Part shown: positions 8,281-32,000 of the stretch, one piece after another
Numbering within the stretch: position 1 is the stretch's first letter
How the letters are laid out: each line of letters starts with the position of its first letter
NCBI RefSeq assembly: GCF_004102945.1
Contig: NZ_CP019384.1
Span: forward strand, 1,470,001-1,502,000
Direction: 5' to 3'
From: Candidatus Velamenicoccus archaeovorus
Lineage (GTDB): Bacteria > Omnitrophota > Gorgyraeia > Velamenicoccales > Velamenicoccaceae
Length of the DNA: 32,000 nucleotides
The notes under the pieces: model-generated
Database searches by the model: none
What the model saw: the letters and a program-made list of their open reading frames with translations, nothing else
Told to the model about the DNA's origin: nothing
Made by a program: the position numbers and the translations under genes

Positions 8281-8358
8281 TGGAATCCCCCCGGACTTAA
8301 AGCCCAGGGCTCCTTTTTTCTTGGGAACAATTCCCCAAATGATCTTATCGGCTGGCCG
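8281..8358 (-). promoter_or_regulatory. Repeated leader block upstream of mnmG (copy 1)
   Basis: 8309-8357 is 48/49 identical to 13292-13340. Followed by a hairpin and GGGGGGA just before the mnmG ATG. Confidence 0.7.
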
Positions 8359-8417
8359 GGAAGGCTCCCTCCCAGAGGCAACCGTCCTTCATGGCCGGGG
8401 AATTAAATCTCAGAAAA

Positions 8418-8545
8418 AATCCCAAACACCAAATACCAAACTCCAGACAATATTCAAATTCCAACCGGCCAATGGCCAAACTTTTTGTTTGGAAATTTTG
8501 GTTATTGGAATTTGTTTGGGATTTGGAAATTGGGATTTGGGATTT
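8418..8545. repeat. Heptamer-phased CCAA/TTGG imperfect palindrome (about 128 bp)
   Basis: ccaa starts at 8422, 8429, 8436 (and ccag at 8443), 8461, 8469 and 8476. ttgg starts at 8489, 8498, 8505, 8516, 8523, 8530 and 8537. Centre is ccaaactttttgtttgg. Confidence 0.85.
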
Positions 8546-13260: not shown

Positions 13261-13343
13261 TAGAATCCCCCGCTGGACTTTATAGTCCAGAGCTCCTTTT
13301 TTCTTGGGAACAATCCCCCAAATGATCTTATCGGCTGGCCGCG
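13261..13343 (-). promoter_or_regulatory. Repeated leader block upstream of the flavodoxin gene (copy 2)
   Basis: 13292-13340 matches 8309-8357 (48/49). Followed by the perfect hairpin ctggact-ataa-agtccag. Confidence 0.7.
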
Positions 13344-14780: not shown

Positions 14781-14920
14781 AGGAGGATGTTTGTTTTTCT
14801 TGCCCTGCGCCAGCCCCGAACCCGGCTGAACGCTCCATGAAAATATTTCACAATCGGTTCATGGCGGTGCAGGGTTTCGCTGCACACCGTCAGAAAAGAA
14901 ACCGCCGGCCTGCTCGCTTG

Positions 14921-14972
14921 TCTCGGCCCTGGCCTTGCACCTGGCCTTGCCCGAAGAGCAGGCCGAGGCCAG
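14921..14972. repeat. GC-rich element, copy 2 (degenerate)
   Basis: tctcggccctggccttgcacctggccttgcccgaagagcaggccgaggccag. Shares ctggccttgcccgaagRgcaggccgagg with copy 3. Confidence 0.65.
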
Positions 14973-15080
14973 ACACGCAGACAGACGTACCGATAGAGCT
15001 TCACTTTACCAATGTCTAAAGAGTACATCAAGACATTTATCCACATTTTGCAACCACGGGCTCCGGAGCACAACCGTCGG

Positions 15081-15776: not shown

Positions 15777-15826
15777 TCGGCCTGCCCCTGGCCTTGCCCG
15801 AAGGGCAGGCCGAGGGCAAGGCCAGG
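15777..15826. repeat. GC-rich interleaved inverted-repeat element, copy 3
   Basis: tcggcctgcc (15777-86) pairs with ggcaggccga (15804-13). cctggccttgcc (15787-98) pairs with ggcaaggccagg (15815-26). 29 nt are identical to the reverse complement of copy 1. Confidence 0.85.
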
Positions 15827-25704: not shown

Positions 25705-25765
25705 ACTAAAAACAAAAGAAGCCGCCGCTCCGTCTGCCTGCTTGTCGAAGATAAGCAGGCAGACG
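25705..25765 (-). terminator. Strong 13-bp hairpin plus a distal U-rich tract at the downstream edge of the cassette island
   Basis: cgtctgcctgctt-gtcgaagat-aagcaggcagacg (25731-25765). In the minus sense it is followed after 10 nt by UUCUUUUGUUUUU, so the geometry is not canonical. Confidence 0.4.
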
Positions 25766-25778
25766 TGCCGGCGAAGCT

Positions 25779-26255
25779 TCACTTTGTCAACAGGCAAAGA
25801 AACCCAAGGATAAAACTCCCGTAACCAAAGACAATAAAAACGGCCTTAAAGCACGTGGAGTAGGTCCATCCCTTTTTGTAGGGAGAGCTCTGCGACTGTC
25901 CTGAAAAATAATCATCCCTGGCAAAAATCCGCAGGACATGCGGCCCTTCCTTATACGCCCCCAGATCGATTTGTTCATCGAGATACTTTAATGCCGCTTC
26001 TCCGTTCCTGACGAGACGCATATTTCTGGCTTCGAATTTCCAAAAAACAAAAGAAAGAAATGCCAATAAAAAAGGAAGAAGACACGACCATTTTGAACAC
26101 GACATCGCCGGGTCTTTTGAAAAAGCAATAAAGGCGCCGATGATAAAAGTCGCAAGCGTTACATACAAATTAAAGGTTTTGAGTCTTTGGTCGGCATGCA
26201 TTGAAAAATAATTCCATGCGTAGCTCCTCATCACCTCGTAGTATTTGTCTTCCAT
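25779..26255 (-). CDS. 3-TM membrane protein of unknown function (last gene of the island)
   Basis: Start trimmed to MEDKYYEVMRSYAWNYFSMHADQRLKTFNLYV (ATG at 26255). The tracked N-terminal extension starts at a TTG inside the palindromic element. About 43% GC in a sampled line. Confidence 0.6.
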   Translation of the reverse strand: MEDKYYEVMRSYAWNYFSMHADQRLKTFNLYVTLATFIIGAFIAFSKDPAMSCSKWSCLLPFLLAFLSFVFWKFEARNMRLVRNGEAALKYLDEQIDLGAYKEGPHVLRIFARDDYFSGQSQSSPYKKGWTYSTCFKAVFIVFGYGSFILGFLCLLTK

Positions 26256-26263
26256 AAGGCCCC

Positions 26264-26300
26264 TATCTCTTGATCGAAGCCGAGCTTCGATCAAATCTCA
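26264..26300. repeat. 37-bp palindromic boundary element, copy A
   Basis: tatctc-ttgatcgaagc-cga-gcttcgatcaa-atctca: a perfect 11-bp stem with a 3-nt centre. Lies between the lipoprotein stop (26308) and the next start (26255). Confidence 0.9.
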
Positions 26301-26307
26301 AACGGGA

Positions 26308-26796
26308 TTAATCTTGCGACAAAGACACCGGCGCCAATCCTTTGACAAAGCCGGTCTTTTCATCGAACTCGAAACGATACAAACCCGGCGGCAACGGCTC
26401 AGCTTGCAGCGATACTCCCTGGGCTTTCATCAGAACCCCGCTGACAGACGTCGCCAGACCTGAAATGGCATTCATCGTCTCCGGGATCTTGGAATCCCTG
26501 GTATCGCCCATCTTGGTAAGCTGCCAGCCATCGGTCAGGTCAAACGTCGCATTGACCGTCCCTAGCCCGCCGTGTACCTTGATGACGTATTCTTCGTTTA
26601 TCCGGGGCAGATAGACGACCTTGCTATCCACTTTGCCATCCGCGTTGCTGACAACCAACAAATAGGGCCACGGCCGGTAGAAATAAATGCCACCCGTCCC
26701 GGCGTTCTTGTCCGTCACCTTCGCAATCTCGATACCGGCGCAGCCCGCCATCATCAAAAGGAACCCTGCGACCACCGACCAAAGACCTCTTTTCAT
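26308..26796 (-). CDS. Lipoprotein of unknown function
   Basis: 162 aa. Signal peptide plus lipobox (FLLMMAGC). SD GGGGGAGGG. Starts 28 nt after the lipase stop, with no repeat between the two genes. Confidence 0.7.
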   Translation of the reverse strand: MKRGLWSVVAGFLLMMAGCAGIEIAKVTDKNAGTGGIYFYRPWPYLLVVSNADGKVDSKVVYLPRINEEYVIKVHGGLGTVNATFDLTDGWQLTKMGDTRDSKIPETMNAISGLATSVSGVLMKAQGVSLQAEPLPPGLYRFEFDEKTGFVKGLAPVSLSQD

Positions 26797-26824
26797 TGTT
26801 CCCTCCCCCGTGGATTTTTGAAAT

Positions 26825-27727
26825 CTATTCTTTATCTAATCTCGAGACGGCATAATTAGCAAGTTTGCAGCAATACAAATCACAGGCATGATGTTGTATC
26901 CCAAGCCCGATCCTCCAAAGATTAAAATAACGACATCTGGCGTCGATAAAACCTGGGTTAGGAACCAGCCTTAAATCCATGAAATCATCGCGGCAAGGCG
27001 TCAGGTAGCGCTGGTCGCCATGATGAGCGTAAAACCCCCGCTCACTGAAAAAATGCTCCAAAATATTGTAGGATTTAAAAAAACTGATCCAGTATATTAA
27101 CTCGACGATGAAAGGAAACGGCACCCGAGGGACCAAATCATTGGCGTTCACAATGCGATATATGGGAGGCTTTATCGTGTCTCCAAGCTCGCTATTTCCC
27201 ACCCGCGGACTTCCGAAAGTATAGCAGGCGGCGATATTGTCCGAACTTAGATATTTCGCCGCCACGAGAGCCAAGGCCCCGCCTAAAGAATGGCCAGTAA
27301 TGTAGATAGCAAAATTTTCTTTCTCCAGATTGCGCACCTCCTCTTCTAACATTTTCTGGGCGCATGCAAAGGCCCGTTGAAAACCATTATGGATCTTGGC
27401 CCCCTTCCCGGCCCTATAAAACCTGAAATCCAAATCAGTAAGAATATCCCACCATTTCTTTACCTCGGTCCCCCTGAATGCCAATACGGCGATCTTATCC
27501 TGTTCCCTTCTTGCCAAAAACCCTTGAGTTTCGCTTTCGCTGAAAGGACGGATTAGCTTAAATCCAAGTTCGCCGAGATGCATTTCCAACTTCTTTCGGA
27601 TCTTTTCCGAATTCTCAAATTCAAGATAAGCAAGACTGGACATCTCTGCCAGAAGCCAGGCCATCCTGTCGCTATACGCGGCCCGCATCGTAGGGGGTTC
27701 CAGCAACGTAACTCTTCTTGCCAACAT
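26825..27727 (-). CDS. Class 3 (Lipase_3-type) lipase, no signal peptide
   Basis: GHSLGGALA nucleophile elbow in ITGHSLGGALALVAAKY, with FRGT upstream. Start trimmed to MLARRVTLLEPP (ATG at 27727, SD GGAG). The tracked TTG start lies in repeat DNA. Confidence 0.8.
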   Translation of the reverse strand: MLARRVTLLEPPTMRAAYSDRMAWLLAEMSSLAYLEFENSEKIRKKLEMHLGELGFKLIRPFSESETQGFLARREQDKIAVLAFRGTEVKKWWDILTDLDFRFYRAGKGAKIHNGFQRAFACAQKMLEEEVRNLEKENFAIYITGHSLGGALALVAAKYLSSDNIAACYTFGSPRVGNSELGDTIKPPIYRIVNANDLVPRVPFPFIVELIYWISFFKSYNILEHFFSERGFYAHHGDQRYLTPCRDDFMDLRLVPNPGFIDARCRYFNLWRIGLGIQHHACDLYCCKLANYAVSRLDKE

Positions 27728-27740
27728 CTTTTTCTCCGCT

Positions 27741-27791
27741 TTCTCGATCAAATCGAAGCCTTGATCGAAGCCGAGCTTCGATCAAGGCTCA
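27741..27791. repeat. Palindromic boundary element, copy B (extended stem plus a scrambled partial arm)
   Basis: gcc-ttgatcgaagc-cga-gcttcgatcaa-ggc (14-bp stem, 27758-27788). The 25-nt core is identical to copy A. Preceded by the partial tctcgatcaaatcgaagc. Confidence 0.85.
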
Positions 27792-27794
27792 TTC

Positions 27795-28256
27795 CTATTT
27801 TTTTATCACCCGGAAGGTGTGATGCACGGCGTCGCTGAACAGAAGCTGCTGCGCGCTGTTGACCTGCTTGAGGCACCATGTGTAGGTCTTGCCGTCCCTG
27901 AAAAGATCGGCCGGCACCTCAATCTCCGTATGCAGACCGGAAACCTGCTCATGGTAGATGGCGCCATTCTGGGACGTCTCGTTCTCCAGGTAAATACGGA
28001 AAAGATAACAATAAACATCGTAGGGCGTATGGGCCGGTTTCCAGCTGAACTTCACGGTCTTCTGCCCGCTGATATCCAGGGTCTCGCCCACGGGCGCCAC
28101 CAGCGTCGGGCTCGGCACACGGAACACCACGGTATTGGCCGGCGCACCGACGGGTTTCTCTTGCGGCGCCGGAGCAGTCTTTTCTTCTCCTGCGCCAACC
28201 TCCGCGCCCCACAAGAAAACCGCCGCCAAAACCAAAGCGTACGTTTTATAGCACAT
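27795..28256 (-). CDS. Small secreted protein, paralog 3 of the family (P3)
   Basis: 153 aa. Signal peptide, then VPSPTLVAPVGETLDISG...FSWKP...YLFRIY...IYHEQV...FRDGKTYTWCLKQ...FRVIKK. One sampled 60-nt line is about 72% GC. Confidence 0.7.
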   Translation of the reverse strand: MCYKTYALVLAAVFLWGAEVGAGEEKTAPAPQEKPVGAPANTVVFRVPSPTLVAPVGETLDISGQKTVKFSWKPAHTPYDVYCYLFRIYLENETSQNGAIYHEQVSGLHTEIEVPADLFRDGKTYTWCLKQVNSAQQLLFSDAVHHTFRVIKK

Positions 28257-28324
28257 GGGCCACCCCCTCCAACCTCCGCCTCAACCATCTTAATGAGACT
28301 TTAAGGCCAGACCTGTTTGTCTCA

Positions 28325-28858
28325 TTATCGTCCGGCTTTTTGCTTCACTTTCTCGGGATCACAGGGCTGACGAAGGATCGCGCCTAAATCCAACAGATTA
28401 AACTCATCATCCATGTTCAAATCAGAACGCTCCAATGTCCCGCGGCATTCATGGCACACATAGAGCATTTTAAGATACTTGCCCATGACATTGCGAGGAA
28501 TTTCGTAACGATTTTCAAGACCCCACCACTCCAGAAGGTCTTTATCACCCTTGGAAGAATTGCATTTCTTACACGACTTGACGATATTGTGGATTTCCGC
28601 AAAGTGACATTCGCGCTTGGCGACGATATGATCGTTGCTCAAGTCGACCGTCGCGCCGCAATAGATGCACTTCGTCTGGTCCATATGCAGGTCTTCACGC
28701 AAGATCTGCGACCACTTCATCTCGCCTGTCTGCAGCTTCTTGAACGAGCTCATGACAAAGCCATAATTCTTACGGTCGCCAAGCGCCGACCCCGAAATTA
28801 GCTTCGCATATTCCCAAAAAATCAAATCACGGATTGTTTTAACGGCTTTAGGTGGCAT
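28325..28858 (-). CDS. HNH endonuclease domain protein
   Basis: 177 aa. CIYCG...DHIVAK...HNIV..CKKCNSSKG (CxxC...DH...N...CxxCN..K HNH/zinc-finger pattern). About 47% GC in a sampled line. Confidence 0.8.
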   Translation of the reverse strand: MPPKAVKTIRDLIFWEYAKLISGSALGDRKNYGFVMSSFKKLQTGEMKWSQILREDLHMDQTKCIYCGATVDLSNDHIVAKRECHFAEIHNIVKSCKKCNSSKGDKDLLEWWGLENRYEIPRNVMGKYLKMLYVCHECRGTLERSDLNMDDEFNLLDLGAILRQPCDPEKVKQKAGR

Positions 28859-28869
28859 ATTATTGAATT

Positions 28870-29004
28870 TTACGAGAGGAGCTCTTGTCTCTTGATCGAA
28901 GCTCTCTTGATTGAAGCCGAGCTTCGATCAAAGCTCAAACTATAAAATGTATTGAACAATAGAATGATTGCCCATATTATTACGATGACTATCATTAACC
29001 ACAT
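28870..29004 (-). CDS. Candidate 44-aa hydrophobic peptide between two repeat copies
   Basis: MWLMIVIVIIWAIILLFNTFYSL followed by a basic tail (SFDRSSASIKRASIKRQELLS) that is translated repeat DNA. Purine-rich AGAGAGA upstream. Speculative. Confidence 0.25.
   Translation of the reverse strand: MWLMIVIVIIWAIILLFNTFYSLSFDRSSASIKRASIKRQELLS
28888..28937. repeat. Palindromic boundary element, copy C (15-nt left half duplicated in tandem)
   Basis: tctcttgatcgaagc (28888-28902) then tctcttgattgaagc-cga-gcttcgatcaa-agctca. One T/G mismatch in the stem. Confidence 0.9.
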
Positions 29005-29025
29005 AGTCTCTCTTTTGAAACGCGT

Positions 29026-29062
29026 TATCTCTTGATCGAAGCTCGGCTTCAATCAAATCTCA
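29026..29062. repeat. 37-bp palindromic boundary element, copy D (core inverted)
   Basis: tatctc-ttgatcgaagc-tcg-gcttcaatcaa-atctca. The core is the exact reverse complement of the copy C core. The terminal tca is the DUF2085 stop codon. Confidence 0.9.
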
Positions 29063-29401
29063 AATAAATCGTCCAATTAAATTAATAATAATTCTCCACC
29101 CCGCAGCGCCTACGCCAATACCGCCAATAATTCCAGTTATAAACCTCCGGGGGTTCGTCGACATAATCCTAAACCATTCTTGAGCAAACCAATCCAGGAA
29201 GATCAAAAACATAAAAAATAAACACACGGGAAAAGATGGTAATGATCCTATCAAAAACAAAAAAAATGAAAACACATGTCCGAGACTCGCTCCGAAACAA
29301 CGAGCACAAAATGGCATAGGCTTGCCTCGAAATGTAAAACTCCTCTCCGGCAACTTATGACATCCCATCTTTGCAATCAAGAGCGTTAAAGCAATATTCA
29401 T
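29060..29401 (-). CDS. DUF2085-like membrane protein
   Basis: 113 aa. CHKLPERSFTFRGKPMPFCARCFG motif (CHxxPERSF...CARC) plus TM segments. The start ATG overlaps the upstream TAA (TAATG). Confidence 0.65.
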   Translation of the reverse strand: MNIALTLLIAKMGCHKLPERSFTFRGKPMPFCARCFGASLGHVFSFFLFLIGSLPSFPVCLFFMFLIFLDWFAQEWFRIMSTNPRRFITGIIGGIGVGAAGWRIIINLIGRFI

Positions 29402-29688
29402 TAGGAAGCTTTCAATTCCCAGCTAAACCCACATTTCTGACAAACATTAAATAACTTATTTGCGTCAGAAGCACCGCAGAGAAGACCAAGGGGACCCAAA
29501 AGAATCGCTCCGCAACATGCACCTCCTGCATCATATCCTTTCTTGGTCGTTGTAATTGATGTGGAACCGCATTTGGGACAAGTTGCAGCAGAGGTCTTAG
29601 CTTCTTTTTTGGGCAGTATTTCACCACAATGCTTACATTTAATCGCTTCATCTTGTATCTCTTCAGCACAGAAAGGACATTTTTTCAT
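29401..29688 (-). CDS. Double zinc-ribbon protein
   Basis: 95 aa. CPFC...CKHCG, CPKCG and CQKCG pairs, with a G/C-rich hydrophobic segment between them. Confidence 0.7.
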
Positions 29689-29697
29689 AGAAACCTC

Positions 29698-29728
29698 TAT
29701 ATCAAAGGGTTATTTGCAAAGTGTCGAG
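29698..29728. repeat. Second boundary motif, copy a (more diverged)
   Basis: tatatcaaagggttatttgcaaagtgtcgag. Shares tatRtcaaagggtta with copies b and c. Lies between the 57-aa ORF stop and the zinc-ribbon start. Confidence 0.6.
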
Positions 29729-29738
29729 AATTAAATAG

Positions 29739-29912
29739 CTAAAACATTGCTGGCACACTTGCAGAAGAAATAAGCAATCCGAATAAGCAGACTATTGTGA
29801 CTAAGCCAAAGATCGCCAGCATAATTTTTGTTCCAATGCCGACATTCTTCGACATCTCACTGTATCTTGCCAAAATATACAACCCAATCATCAACCCGAT
29901 TATTGGAATCAT
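29739..29912 (-). CDS. 57-aa two-TM peptide, unannotated in the ORF track
   Basis: Own translation gives MIPIIGLMIGLYILARYSEMSKNVGIGTKIMLAIFGLVTIVCLFGLLISSASVPAMF. Strong SD AAAAGGAGG lies 8 nt upstream of the ATG at 29912. Confidence 0.5.
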   Translation of the reverse strand: MIPIIGLMIGLYILARYSEMSKNVGIGTKIMLAIFGLVTIVCLFGLLISSASVPAMF

Positions 29913-29994
29913 TGCCTTATACCTCCTTTTTACAGCTCTGAGAAATCCTTAATCCATTTTTGTCCAAACGAGAACACCTCCACCGGAAATCTAA

Positions 29995-30023
29995 TTATGT
30001 CAAAGGGTTAGCGGTACCCAGTC
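29995..30023. repeat. Second boundary motif, copy b
   Basis: ttatgtcaaagggttagcggtacccagtc. 25/29 identical to copy c. Non-coding here, lying just 3' of the stop at 30033. Confidence 0.75.
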
Positions 30024-30032
30024 ATTTACCAA

Positions 30033-30875
30033 TTATTTAGAACTGTAATGATTTACAGTATAGGAAAGGATGGAACCAATAATATCCATATTATTTCTAT
30101 CATTAAACTGGATTAGCCTCGGTTTTGATCGATTGTTTTCTGAAAACTGCATTCCGTCGGCATAAAACTGAATATCCAAAATTTTATCCAAGTTAGTCGC
30201 AAAAGATTTTCTATCACCCCGAAATATAAGTCTTTTGCTGGAAAATATTAATTCCCCGTCACTCGTAGAAACATTTCCTTTTTCCACAACAGGATATCCT
30301 CTGAAGCCGCCTACGCGATAACTAACCCCTTTCATCACTCTGAAGCTAAGCCCACTGTACCCGCCTTCGTAGTGCCTGCTCAAAACTTTTTCTTCCAACA
30401 AAGAAGCGGGCTCTGACCAATATACCTGTTCCCCCTTCTTTAGAACGATATTTGCGATTTGTAGGGTTGGCATATTGCCGTTCTGGATCTCTCTCACCAG
30501 GCGATATCTAGCAAGTATCTTCTTTTTAGCTTCGATTAAATCATCACTCAGATTTAATTCTTTCTGAATATTGTTCAGCTCTTTTTCTTCCTCTTCTGTA
30601 AGAGTTGAATCGTCCACTGCCTTATTAAAGGCGGCCATATAAGCATCAATCTTTGCAACCTTTATATCTTCGTCATTAAGGCATAGCTCTGATTTTCTGC
30701 TTTCAATTTGTTTTATCTCTTCCGCTGTTAATTTACCGTCCGATGCCAGCTGTATCATCTCATCTTTCAATAACTGAATATTTACTTCCTTCTTCAGTTG
30801 GGCTTCTTTTTCCTGTTTTCTTTGCTCGGCAATCTGTTTCCATTCTTCAATCTTCTTCTTTATAAATTGAAGCAT
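30033..30875 (-). CDS. Coiled-coil protein with a C-terminal bacterial PH (YokE/GRAM-like) domain candidate
   Basis: Start trimmed to MLQFIKKKIEEW (ATG at 30875, SD GGGGAGG). Two LTxEE...L.L.D.DI repeats. C-terminal LKKGEQVYW...STSDGELIFSSKRLIFRGDRKS resembles the bPH pattern. About 27% GC in a sampled line. Confidence 0.55.
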   Translation of the reverse strand: MLQFIKKKIEEWKQIAEQRKQEKEAQLKKEVNIQLLKDEMIQLASDGKLTAEEIKQIESRKSELCLNDEDIKVAKIDAYMAAFNKAVDDSTLTEEEEKELNNIQKELNLSDDLIEAKKKILARYRLVREIQNGNMPTLQIANIVLKKGEQVYWSEPASLLEEKVLSRHYEGGYSGLSFRVMKGVSYRVGGFRGYPVVEKGNVSTSDGELIFSSKRLIFRGDRKSFATNLDKILDIQFYADGMQFSENNRSKPRLIQFNDRNNMDIIGSILSYTVNHYSSK

Positions 30876-30901
30876 GCCATGCCTCCCCTGAGTCAGAGCT
30901 A

Positions 30902-30938
30902 TATCTCTTGATCGAAGCTCGGCTTCAATCAAATCTCA
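30902..30938. repeat. 37-bp palindromic boundary element, copy E
   Basis: tatctcttgatcgaagctcggcttcaatcaaatctca. 37/37 identical to copy D, which lies 1.9 kb away in unrelated flanks. Confidence 0.9.
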
Positions 30939-30993
30939 CAGACCACTTAACCAAATCGTGATTATCTGAATACCATTTATTTCTCATAAATAT

Positions 30994-31022
30994 TTATGTC
31001 AAAGGGTTATTGGTGCCCGGTC
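30994..31022. repeat. Second boundary motif, copy c
   Basis: ttatgtcaaagggttattggtgcccggtc. Here it encodes the last 9 codons plus the stop (GPGTNNPLT*) of the 246-aa ORF. Confidence 0.75.
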
Positions 31023-31734
31023 CATCGTTATCTCGTTGATCAAAATGTGCTTTAATTCTTCCTATCGACTCTTTTATCTCCTTTCGATCATGGAAATCAA
31101 TGAGTAATTTATAGCTCATAGCATTTGTCTCCAGAATATAAGCAATTTTTTGGAGTTCGCCTATTAATGCGTAAAATTTTTCAGATCTAGAATTGAAATT
31201 TTCAATTCGTTTTAAATATTCATCGAATATTTCAGTCGCCGCTGCTCTAATCTTATCACCTTCTACAAATTCTTTAATAGCTATACAAAGATCATACTCG
31301 TAAAAATTAGTTGATTCTTCCACGAGAATAAAAAGATGCTGTGCCTGTTCGTAAAATATCCTACCATCTTCGCCTGTTAAAGAAAAAAGCTTATAAAAAG
31401 GAAGAGAATATAAAGACTCTTGTTTCATTCTCAGAAATCTTAAGGGAGAATAATCGTCTGATGATAACTTTATCCCAGTAGCCTGTTTTTCTTTGAATAT
31501 TTTTAAAATACGCAAAGAATGAGCGAAGTTTTCTCTAAAAATACCAAGCGCATGTTCAATTCTTTCAATCAGAATATCAATTCCATGTTCCAAATATCGC
31601 TTAACAATCTGCTCATTTTCTCTCTGAACCAAATACTGTCTCCGCCAAAACAAATACGCAAAAAATGCAGGAATTAAATATTTAACTACCTCTGCGCTCC
31701 AATTCCCTAAAAAAACAAGCAGTCTTTCTTTCAT
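30994..31734 (-). CDS. N-terminally TM-anchored helical protein of unknown function
   Basis: 246 aa. TM segment VVKYLIPAFFAYLFW, SD GGAGG, AT-rich (about 35% GC in a sampled line). No recognisable motif. Confidence 0.6.
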   Translation of the reverse strand: MKERLLVFLGNWSAEVVKYLIPAFFAYLFWRRQYLVQRENEQIVKRYLEHGIDILIERIEHALGIFRENFAHSLRILKIFKEKQATGIKLSSDDYSPLRFLRMKQESLYSLPFYKLFSLTGEDGRIFYEQAQHLFILVEESTNFYEYDLCIAIKEFVEGDKIRAAATEIFDEYLKRIENFNSRSEKFYALIGELQKIAYILETNAMSYKLLIDFHDRKEIKESIGRIKAHFDQRDNDGPGTNNPLT

Positions 31735-31822
31735 TGTTTAACCTCCAAAATCTATGCTAACAGCTCGAGGTCTCGCATCAGTTGAATTTCAATTTATGGC
31801 TTAACTAAAAAAGGTTTTCCGT

Positions 31823-31972
31823 TTATAGTACACATTTGATCTTAGTTCCTTTCGTATAAAACCTAGATCCTGGAGACACTCTAGTATTTTTTTTGCGAAC
31901 TTCTTCTCGCAGCCTTGTGCCTCGAGACAAAGATTTAAGATTATCCGGGGTGAGCTTTTCAAAATCTCTCAT
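31823..31972 (-). CDS. Possible 49-aa basic ORF at the window edge
   Basis: Own translation gives MRDFEKLTPDNLKSLSRGTRLREEVRKKNTRVSPGSRFYTKGTKIKCVL. No clear SD. Very tentative. Confidence 0.2.
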   Translation of the reverse strand: MRDFEKLTPDNLKSLSRGTRLREEVRKKNTRVSPGSRFYTKGTKIKCVL

Positions 31973-32000
31973 ATGTGCAATAATTCTTAGACTCAAATAT

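Follow-up and report, generated by a model that had tools for sequence, protein, structure and literature searches.

Over its first 25.6 kb, the window (the whole stretch of 32,000 nucleotides analysed here) carries ordinary chromosomal genes, for example mnmG and the genes for NAD synthase, phosphoglycerate mutase, and flavodoxins. GC content is about 55% in the rest of the window and drops to 34% to 52% over 25 to 32 kb, where an island of accessory genes is located (Table 1). The island encodes an 8xMP-like protein, a 162-aa protein, a class-3 lipase (lipase_3), a 153-aa protein, an HNH protein, a DUF2085 protein, a Zn-ribbon protein, a 57-aa membrane peptide, and two proteins of 281 and 246 aa without known identity. 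The 153-aa protein is 100% identical to BU251_07015 of Candidatus Velamenicoccus archaeovorus, and the window derives from this bacterium or from a strain almost identical to it. PADLOC returned weak PtuB-like HNH and PDC-S48 (a candidate defence family) matches on the island and no recognisable defence system. A short palindromic element is present in five copies (A to E) within the island, and no copies occur in the first 26 kb of the window.

In related contigs, the island is flanked on one side by a gene for a class II ribonucleotide reductase (RNR) and on the other by a methyltransferase gene, the latter having hundreds of Omnitrophota homologues. The RNR gene and the end of the island have true terminators with T-runs. 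Metagenome contigs scanned for the exact pattern yielded 23 stretches with the element, several with two to four copies and most from this one locus, and protein-anchored look-ups added the complete islands L039, L047, and L049. Island contents vary by strain and include TIR, Fic, RES, HSDR_N, ORC/Cdc6-like, and Imm_superinfect genes, with the greatest strain differences at the RNR-proximal end. The neighbours on the RNR and methyltransferase sides do not include an integrase. Pfam searches gave no recombinase of the tyrosine, serine, or HUH type, either among the window's longest non-overlapping ORFs or among 54 ORFs of related loci and the gene tables and flanks of islands L039, L047, and L049.

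Table 1 Positions of the island, the palindrome copies, and associated features in the window.
Feature	Coordinates	Strand	Description
Island-closing intrinsic terminator	25708..25764	-	Canonical, 16-bp stem then T-run
Accessory-gene island	25779..32000	-	Co-oriented genes; continues past right window end
Copy A	26264..26300	-	Between 162-aa gene and 8xMP-like gene
Copy B	27741..27791	-	Core 27761-27785; between 153-aa gene and class-3 lipase gene
Copy C	28888..28937	-	Core 28907-28931; gene-strand loop TCG; A at position 20
D/C doublet	28907..29056	-	Cores exact reverse complements, 100 nt apart
Copy D	29026..29062	-	Core 29032-29056; gene-strand loop CGA; T at position 6
Motif AACCCTTTGAYATA(AT), extended -10 promoter-like	29698..29711	-	At cassette start
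Copy E	30902..30938	-	Upstream of 281-aa gene; 37 nt identical to copy D

The palindrome and its sites in the window

The element is a palindrome of 25 bases with a 3-base centre that occurs in two mirror states. Its consensus, TTGATYGAAGC-NNN-GCTTCRATCAA, is found five times in the window, with 0 occurrences expected by chance. A search with TTGATCGAAGCNNNGCTTCRATCAA, allowing up to three mismatches, matched at 26270 (A), 27761 (B), 28907 (C), 29032 (D), and 30908 (E), compared with 0.00 matches in shuffled sequence. On the plus strand the centre is CGA in copies A, B, and C and TCG in D and E. The arms are symmetric over 11 bp, or over 12 bp if a U.G pair on the gene strand is counted, so that only three nucleotides are asymmetric. 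An earlier note on this DNA had divided the core into 9-bp arms around a 7-bp spacer; that division can be made, but it is arbitrary given the 11(12)-3-11(12) symmetry. The hairpin folds strongly (-17 to -27 kcal/mol). An alignment of 39 copies has 96% of its stem cells paired, and 31 of these copies form the 12th pair (U.G, U-A, or C-G) on the gene strand.

The full element is about 36 nt long and comprises GAGNT, the 25-nt core, and about 6 nt more. Read on the gene strand, T-GAGNT is followed by the first arm of the consensus, TCG or CGA, the second arm, and then GAGATA, TGGATA, GATTCA, or another sequence. Copy A, for example, reads TGAGAT, TTGATCGAAGC-TCG-GCTTCGATCAA, GAGATA. An intrinsic terminator was ruled out, as no T-run follows the stem; GAGAU is found there instead. 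Rfam assigned the element to no family at gathering thresholds, the only matches being chance-level ones to miRNAs and sRNAs (E up to 5), and no match was found in viral contigs, plasmids, or phages.

Several claims of the earlier note about the individual copies are borne out. The core of copy C, TTGATTGAAGCCGAGCTTCGATCAA, is the exact reverse complement of that of D and E (25/25 positions, including the position-6/20 mismatch). The flanks keep one direction, on the right (A[TCG]CTCA) at all five copies and on the left (tctc) at A, C, D, and E; the left flank is absent at B. Copy C is accompanied by a tandem duplicate of one arm plus flank, with 28888-28902 (tctcTTGATCGAAGC) and 28903-28917 (tctcTTGATTGAAGC) equal at 14 of 15 positions. 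The partial arm reported beside copy B consists of arm fragments at 27741-27760, TCGATCAA and then ATCGAAGC. The stem of copy B reaches 15 bp through AGCC/GGCT, and its orthologues in L031, L022, and L047 have kept the core and differ in the immediate flanks. Copies D and C could form a perfect inter-core duplex of about 26 bp enclosing a 44-aa hydrophobic ORF (minimum free energy of the doublet -61.4 kcal/mol, z = -6.6).

All copies in the island are intergenic, and many lie 3 to 20 nt 3' of a stop codon and 5 to 33 nt 5' of the next start; one outlying copy, in L016, is located within a giant ORF. In the 57-aa, DUF2085, and 153-aa genes, the TGA of the element stands in for the native stop at the same codon; the DUF2085 gene of the window ends at the TGA in the flank of copy D. 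The DUF2085 gene of L049 has TAA at the same codon, without the element.

Two centre states in the wider family

The two-state centre that the earlier note had described persists in a larger collection, where random centres would have spoken against it. The centre is TCG in 22 of 34 distinct copies, CGA in 11, and TCA in one; thus 33 of the 34 are in one of the two states. Both states are present in each of the flank subfamilies GAGAT..GAGATA and GAGGT..TGGATA. The flanks are uniformly oriented relative to the genes, with the TGAGNT side upstream on the gene strand in 34 of 34 copies. Cores are identical between copies at 24 to 25 of 25 positions, and their flanks are 70% to 86% identical. Within the stem, pair 6:20 alone varies; 11 copies carry T6 and seven carry A20. 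T6 is found with CGA in six copies and TCG in five, and A20 with CGA in one and TCG in six, which is a trend only. Unrelated palindromes that match the same pattern have random centres. GTDB species representatives contain singleton palindromes only, with mostly random centres, and the same core was found in one Omnitrophica genome (L010). Isolated copies beyond the island occur in L026, L024, L016, and L010. Island L049 has one degenerate match and one divergent copy, TTGGCCGAAGC-CGG-GCTTCGGCCGA, in which GATC is changed to GGCC in both arms and the stem is preserved.

The centre can differ in orientation with or without the rest of the core. The copies L033_1720 and L031_4918 have the same flanks (TGAGGT ... 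TGGATA), the same T6, and opposite loops, such that the loop alone is flipped. Whole-core flips are seen between near neighbours, namely window copies D and C, 934 and 865 in L018, and 193 and 151 in L026; in L018 and L026 the reverse complementarity extends to the 6:20 mismatch and fails only at the outermost base or base pair. Opposite loops are found in each of the four doublets spaced by less than 110 nt (window D/C, L018, L026, and L047), which fold at -44 to -68 kcal/mol with inter-core stems of 24 to 27 bp. The inversion in these doublets is limited to the cores, and the flanks are direct. No orthologous site was found in both loop states within an otherwise identical context, and we infer, rather than observe, flipping of the centre in place.

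Crossover between opposed lox, dif, or FRT sites inverts the intervening DNA and leaves chimeric flanks. The earlier note had taken the centre to set the polarity of such a site; loop states are indeed mixed, yet none of the 34 copies adjoins an inverted segment or has chimeric flanks (ATCTC-core-GAGAT, 0/34). All cassette genes point the same way, regardless of loop state. A core that is flipped relative to both of its own flanks is not the product of a two-site crossover. Such a crossover also cannot yield a loop-only flip, and the L033_1720/L031_4918 pair therefore argues against a lox/dif/FRT reading; the same pair contradicts the suggestion that the core flips as a unit. The proposed likeness to Acinetobacter pdif sites fails as well, as the element is 25 bp long, its arms are identical, and its loop order does not alternate (CGA, CGA, TCG, TCG, TCG in the window; CGA, TCG, CGA, TCG, TCG in L031/L036). 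What is left of the idea that these are site-specific recombination sites is that they are recombination junctions; flipping does not speak for a site-specific recombinase, and that model failed several tests.

Junctions and strain differences

The element is a marker of recombination junctions. Homology between strains ends at the element, and the gene modules to either side of the core occur in changing combinations. One downstream module (core-GAGCCCTGTGATCCCGAG...) is preceded by three different partners (in L047, L027, and L031), and the module GCRAAAATATG... by the RNR terminator in L034 or by another gene in L023. The 57-aa gene has three alternative downstream neighbours and the RNR terminator region has two. 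Turnover has been recent. Over 7.9 kb, loci L047/L048 differ from the window by 21 mismatches (99.06% identity), and at site A they have a 53-nt insertion consisting of a half core and a second, flipped full core, which brings the site to a half core and two full cores. These loci also have a deletion that joins the 3' edge of a core to the final 13 HNH codons, with AG as the sole microhomology. Tandem duplications of an arm plus flank adjoin full cores in four places: copy C, L031 (4899 and 5188), and L033 (285).

Breakpoints are variable, falling after core+GAG, after core+TGGATA, at T|GAGNT, or 3 to 14 nt further upstream, and no crossover at a single fixed position inside the core was seen among those compared. 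About half of the junctions are without a hairpin of any kind. Further, island L039 is a full variable island with zero copies, and therefore the element is not needed for variability. No clean pairs of filled and empty insertion sites were found, as the adjoining sequence differs wherever the element is present or absent. Strains that are 99% identical in shared DNA differ in island content, which makes the element useful for strain typing and for following gene flux in ultra-small bacteria. The element marks a compact, fast-changing accessory island in an uncultivated, predatory Omnitrophota lineage.

Two modes of insertion were rejected. Duplication of a GAGAT target site by insertion of 25 bp is contradicted by the flanks, which match in canonical copies only, while the 3' flank falls into the classes GAGATA, TGGATA, and GATTCA. 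A model in which the terminal inverted repeats of neighbouring cassette transposons abut, the loop being a 3-bp duplication, is contradicted by loops that often differ on either side of a cassette and by the full core directly after the RNR terminator in L034.

Origin of the two states and competing explanations

The two states most likely result from self-inversion of the palindrome during DNA copying, rather than from a lox/dif-type recombinase. A perfect palindrome has arms that share homology with one another and with both strands of all other copies, and we infer that the flips arise from this homology in both orientations. A nascent strand or conversion tract could change templates, moving onto the other arm or onto another copy's opposite strand, copy the centre in reverse, and then switch back, leaving an exact reverse complement. 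Switch points outside the stem mismatch would flip the mismatch too, and switch points inside it would leave the mismatch in place. The same process, together with stalling or breakage at the hairpin, would also account for the half-site duplications, the inverted doublets, the 53-nt expansion of site A, and the deletion and fusion endpoints at core edges, which use microhomologies of 2 to 8 nt. The hairpin repeats would act as patches of microhomology and as obstacles to replication, at which modules are joined, deleted, duplicated, and re-assorted.

In full, this reading describes a REP/REPIN-like palindromic repeat in which template switching or inverted gene conversion turns the centre around, and which forms a recombination-prone junction without a dedicated recombinase, its hairpin favouring rearrangement through microhomology. 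We give the reading as a whole about an even chance. Inversion by self-templating is its firmer part and is probable, and the involvement of no dedicated enzyme is evenly balanced against its opposite. The most likely role is a putative intercistronic RNA or DNA hairpin (an mRNA 3' stabiliser or an insulator), or none, the element then being a selfish repeat. If the reading is correct, this is a clean natural family of perfect palindromes that diversifies by self-templated inversion and seeds rearrangements. It also carries a warning that a two-state spacer between fixed flanks is not a signature of site-specific recombination.

Among known systems, the element has the most in common with REP/REPIN elements and with hairpin minute inversions. 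Like REP/BIME elements and REPINs (Bertels & Rainey 2011, PMC3116915), it is a 25- to 37-nt extragenic palindrome in intercistronic gaps, forms inverted doublets that fold into a long hairpin as well as tandem higher-order arrangements, has a conserved motif beside the hairpin, and is linked to rearrangements. It differs in having, across the window and the contigs scanned, tens rather than hundreds of copies, concentrated in one variable island, in its strict co-orientation with genes, in the flank GAGNT rather than GTAG, and in doublets that invert the core only and not the flanks. Further, no RAYT gene was found in the window or related loci. Inversion of hairpin loops by template switching is documented, whether or not the stem changes too, and in those minute inversions, as here, the segment between perfect inverted arms is exactly and recurrently reverse-complemented (PMC8794818). 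The present case differs in that neighbouring copies are mutual reverse complements and that the element is a multi-copy family, so that inverted gene conversion between copies is an extra route. Minute inversions of hairpin loops also occur in chloroplast non-coding DNA.

Some observations fit the template-switch model poorly. A 25-bp palindrome is short for cruciform-driven instability, which counts against the model, and the strict co-orientation (34/34) and the three stop replacements at the same codon are left unaccounted for. The core is more conserved than its flanks, which suggests either a reader that recognises the sequence or strong concerted evolution; neither is obviously supplied by a passive hairpin. 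Extreme core conservation and exact abutment of stop codons are not accounted for by a passive hairpin, and both would warrant looking for a reader protein. Core conservation, stop replacement, the compensated arms of L049, and co-orientation together keep three rival explanations alive.

The core may instead be the crossover site of a site-specific recombinase encoded elsewhere, as part of an integron-like or Xer/IMEX-like platform downstream of the RNR gene, in which the central GC-CGA-GC would be an overlap region that must match between partner sites. This is unlikely. It is consistent with at least five comparisons in which the core is intact and the modules to either side of it are re-assorted, with co-oriented cassettes and variability that peaks at the RNR-proximal end, with one deletion endpoint exactly at a core edge, and with strong conservation of core and centre, as mutual compatibility of sites would demand; the element also adjoins stop codons or provides them, a frequent property of attC sites. 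However, no recombinase gene is present in the window, among the 54 related-locus ORFs, or beside the three complete islands, and opposed cores are common without inverted segments or chimeric flanks. Breakpoint positions vary, about half of the junctions are hairpin-free, L039 is variable with no copy, and the loop-only flip is not obtainable by two-site crossover.

The known systems of this kind resemble the element in part. Integron attC sites and CALINs are likewise co-oriented cassette arrays of strain-variable content with a hairpin at ORF 3' ends, which sometimes includes the stop codon. However, attC sites have RYYYAAC/GTTRRRY boxes and an imperfect hairpin of 57 to 141 nt with extrahelical bases, none of which the element has. 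The element is 25 to 37 nt long with a perfect 11- to 12-bp stem and a 3-nt loop, and is conserved in sequence and not in structure alone. In an integron each cassette ends in a site and the integrase and attI lie at one end; here many junctions are siteless, no intI is adjacent, and several cassettes have their own promoter-like motif. An attC-like family conserved only in structure was also ruled out, since junctions without a core have no other hairpin with a stem of at least 9 bp. Xer dif and pdif sites share short inverted arms, an asymmetric centre, and a position at module borders, and a host recombinase encoded elsewhere is possible in principle. The 28-bp pdif site (11-6-11) has distinct XerC and XerD arms and alternates in orientation around modules, whereas the 25-bp element has identical arms that do not resemble dif arms, a 3-nt asymmetry, no alternation, and no inverted modules.

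The element could also be a selected binding site, either a palindromic DNA operator for a dimeric island regulator or an RNA processing or stability element, with the flips being neutral. Conservation of the core far above that of flanking genes suggests selection of this kind, and a centre that presents one duplex sequence from either side fits a symmetric dimer on double-stranded DNA. The intercistronic position of many copies, close after stops (3 to 20 nt) and before starts (5 to 33 nt), and the 12th stem pair, which 31 of the 39 copies form on the gene strand, are consistent with it as well. It is nonetheless improbable, as improbable as a recombinase site: orthologous genes in L039 and L049 function without the element, Rfam gave no match, no candidate regulator was identified, and an RNA loop reader would not accept both UCG and CGA. 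Taken alone, a binding site also leaves the half-site duplications and the core-edge breakpoints unaccounted for.

A little less probable still is a new cassette-exchange system of Omnitrophota, in which a recombinase or nuclease encoded elsewhere would read the conserved duplex core in either orientation and join cassettes exactly at stop codons. Such a system would build the variable accessory and defence island downstream of the RNR gene, and would amount to an integron-like platform without an adjacent integrase or an attC-type site.

The least probable of the alternatives is that the element is a REP or REPIN moved as single-stranded DNA by a RAYT or an IS200/IS605-type HUH transposase, with the 5' GAGNT as cleavage or guide motif and the inverted doublets as the mobile unit. 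The four doublets do form long inter-core hairpins like those of REPINs (PMC3116915), a conserved 5' flank lies beside the hairpin in strictly strand-specific orientation, a new copy with its own TGAGGT flank stands beside a resident copy in a 99%-identical strain, and isolated copies are found outside the island (L026, L024, L016, and L010); but copies are few and clustered (23 stretches in the metagenome scan, most from one locus), the window of about 32 kb and the related loci contain no Y1 transposase, the flanks of doublet members are direct and not inverted, and clean filled-versus-empty insertion sites are missing among the loci compared.

The promoter-like motif AACCCTTTGAYATA(AT) recurs in the window at 29996-30009 and 30995-31008 and is present on the gene strand of seven related loci. 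In L027, the core directly abuts the motif.

Motifs at the ends of cassettes

The conserved gene-strand motif AACCCTTTGAYATAAT is located at the starts of cassettes, both in the strain-variable island of the window and in related, mostly metagenomic loci (L-numbers), and often has a small TTCCGnnGGAA hairpin on its 3' side. The motif looks like an extended -10 promoter, and on the basis of this sequence resemblance many cassettes may have their own promoter. In L027, the 25-nt palindromic core of the element lies directly against the motif.

At the opposite end of the genes, the TGA of the element substitutes for a native TAA or TAG stop in three different cassettes. Because this TGA falls at exactly the native stop codon, the length of the protein is unaltered. 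The 5' region of the cassette gene for a 153-aa protein contains an AGAGC-CGA-GCTCT hairpin, followed by GGAAT, that has its AGC-CGA-GCT centre in common with the 25-nt core. Two loci have two of these hairpins back to back, with the centres flipped.

Coordinates of motifs, cores, and other repeats in the window and in related loci
Feature	Window	Strand	Related loci	Context
AACCCTTTGAYATAAT motif	29698-29711, 29996-30009, 30995-31008	minus	L018 829, L022 1376, L030 2154, L032 3971, L034 8867, L037 3216, L039 7557	
Stop substitution	29057-29062		L049 about 9330	copy D in window
Stop substitution	29739-29741		L031 4943-4948	
Stop substitution			L018 959-964	
AGAGC-CGA-GCTCT hairpin			L039 7048, L033 1690, L018 903/918, L031 2663/2678	
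Core outside island			L016 7316-7340	within ORF of >3000 aa
Tandem inverted core pair outside island			L026 151-217	after B12-binding radical SAM gene
Core outside island			L024 714-738	between alginate-export and GH57 genes
Core outside island			L010 7797-7819	Omnitrophica UBA6210, after terminator
HNH gene 3' end	28325-28368		L031 1583-1640, L027 128-190, L047 9888-9950	
Divergent core			L049 10472-10496	
44-aa ORF	28870-29004	minus		
GC-rich palindromic element	407-470	plus		
GC-rich palindromic element	14919-14978, 15777-15826	minus		
62-nt repeat	8297-8358, 13280-13341			
CCAAT/ATTGG-like palindromes	276-344, 8417-8545			

Cores outside the island, gene remnants, and a divergent copy

Copies of the 25-nt core with a CGA or TCG centre are also present outside the island (L016, L026, L024, and L010), where they are without the TGAGNT flank. 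Within the cassettes, the HNH gene is intact in the window, whereas in three strains only its last 13 codons, ending in PCDPEKVKQKAGR and the stop, are kept as a remnant immediately 3' of a core. An additional HNH allele with a differing C-terminus is found upstream of the remnant-bearing core in L031. The L049 locus contains a divergent core, TTGGCCGAAGC-CGG-GCTTCGGCCGA, in which GATC is changed to GGCC in both arms. This copy adjoins a 153-aa gene that, over the 292 nt preceding the core, has 95% identity to the window; downstream is a different lipase module, of the DDHD type.

Hairpin-loop ORF and repeats in the core genome

The loop of the long hairpin that can be formed by the doublet of copies D and C is occupied by a 44-aa ORF (MWLMIVIVIIWAIILLFNTFYSL...), which reads through core C and is strongly hydrophobic in its N-terminal half. 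It could encode a small membrane peptide or be spurious.

The members of a second repeat family, in the core-genome part of the window, are GC-rich palindromes of about 55 nt (CCTGGCCTTG..GCCCTTCGGGC..CAAGGCCAGG); one pair has 31/31 complementarity. A 62-nt repeat is present twice (94% identity between the copies), once upstream of mnmG and once across the start of a flavodoxin gene. It includes an AAGGAG ribosome-binding site as well as a small hairpin, and could serve as a common leader or promoter. Long imperfect palindromes of CCAAT/ATTGG-like units adjoin mnmG or sit close to the left end of the window.
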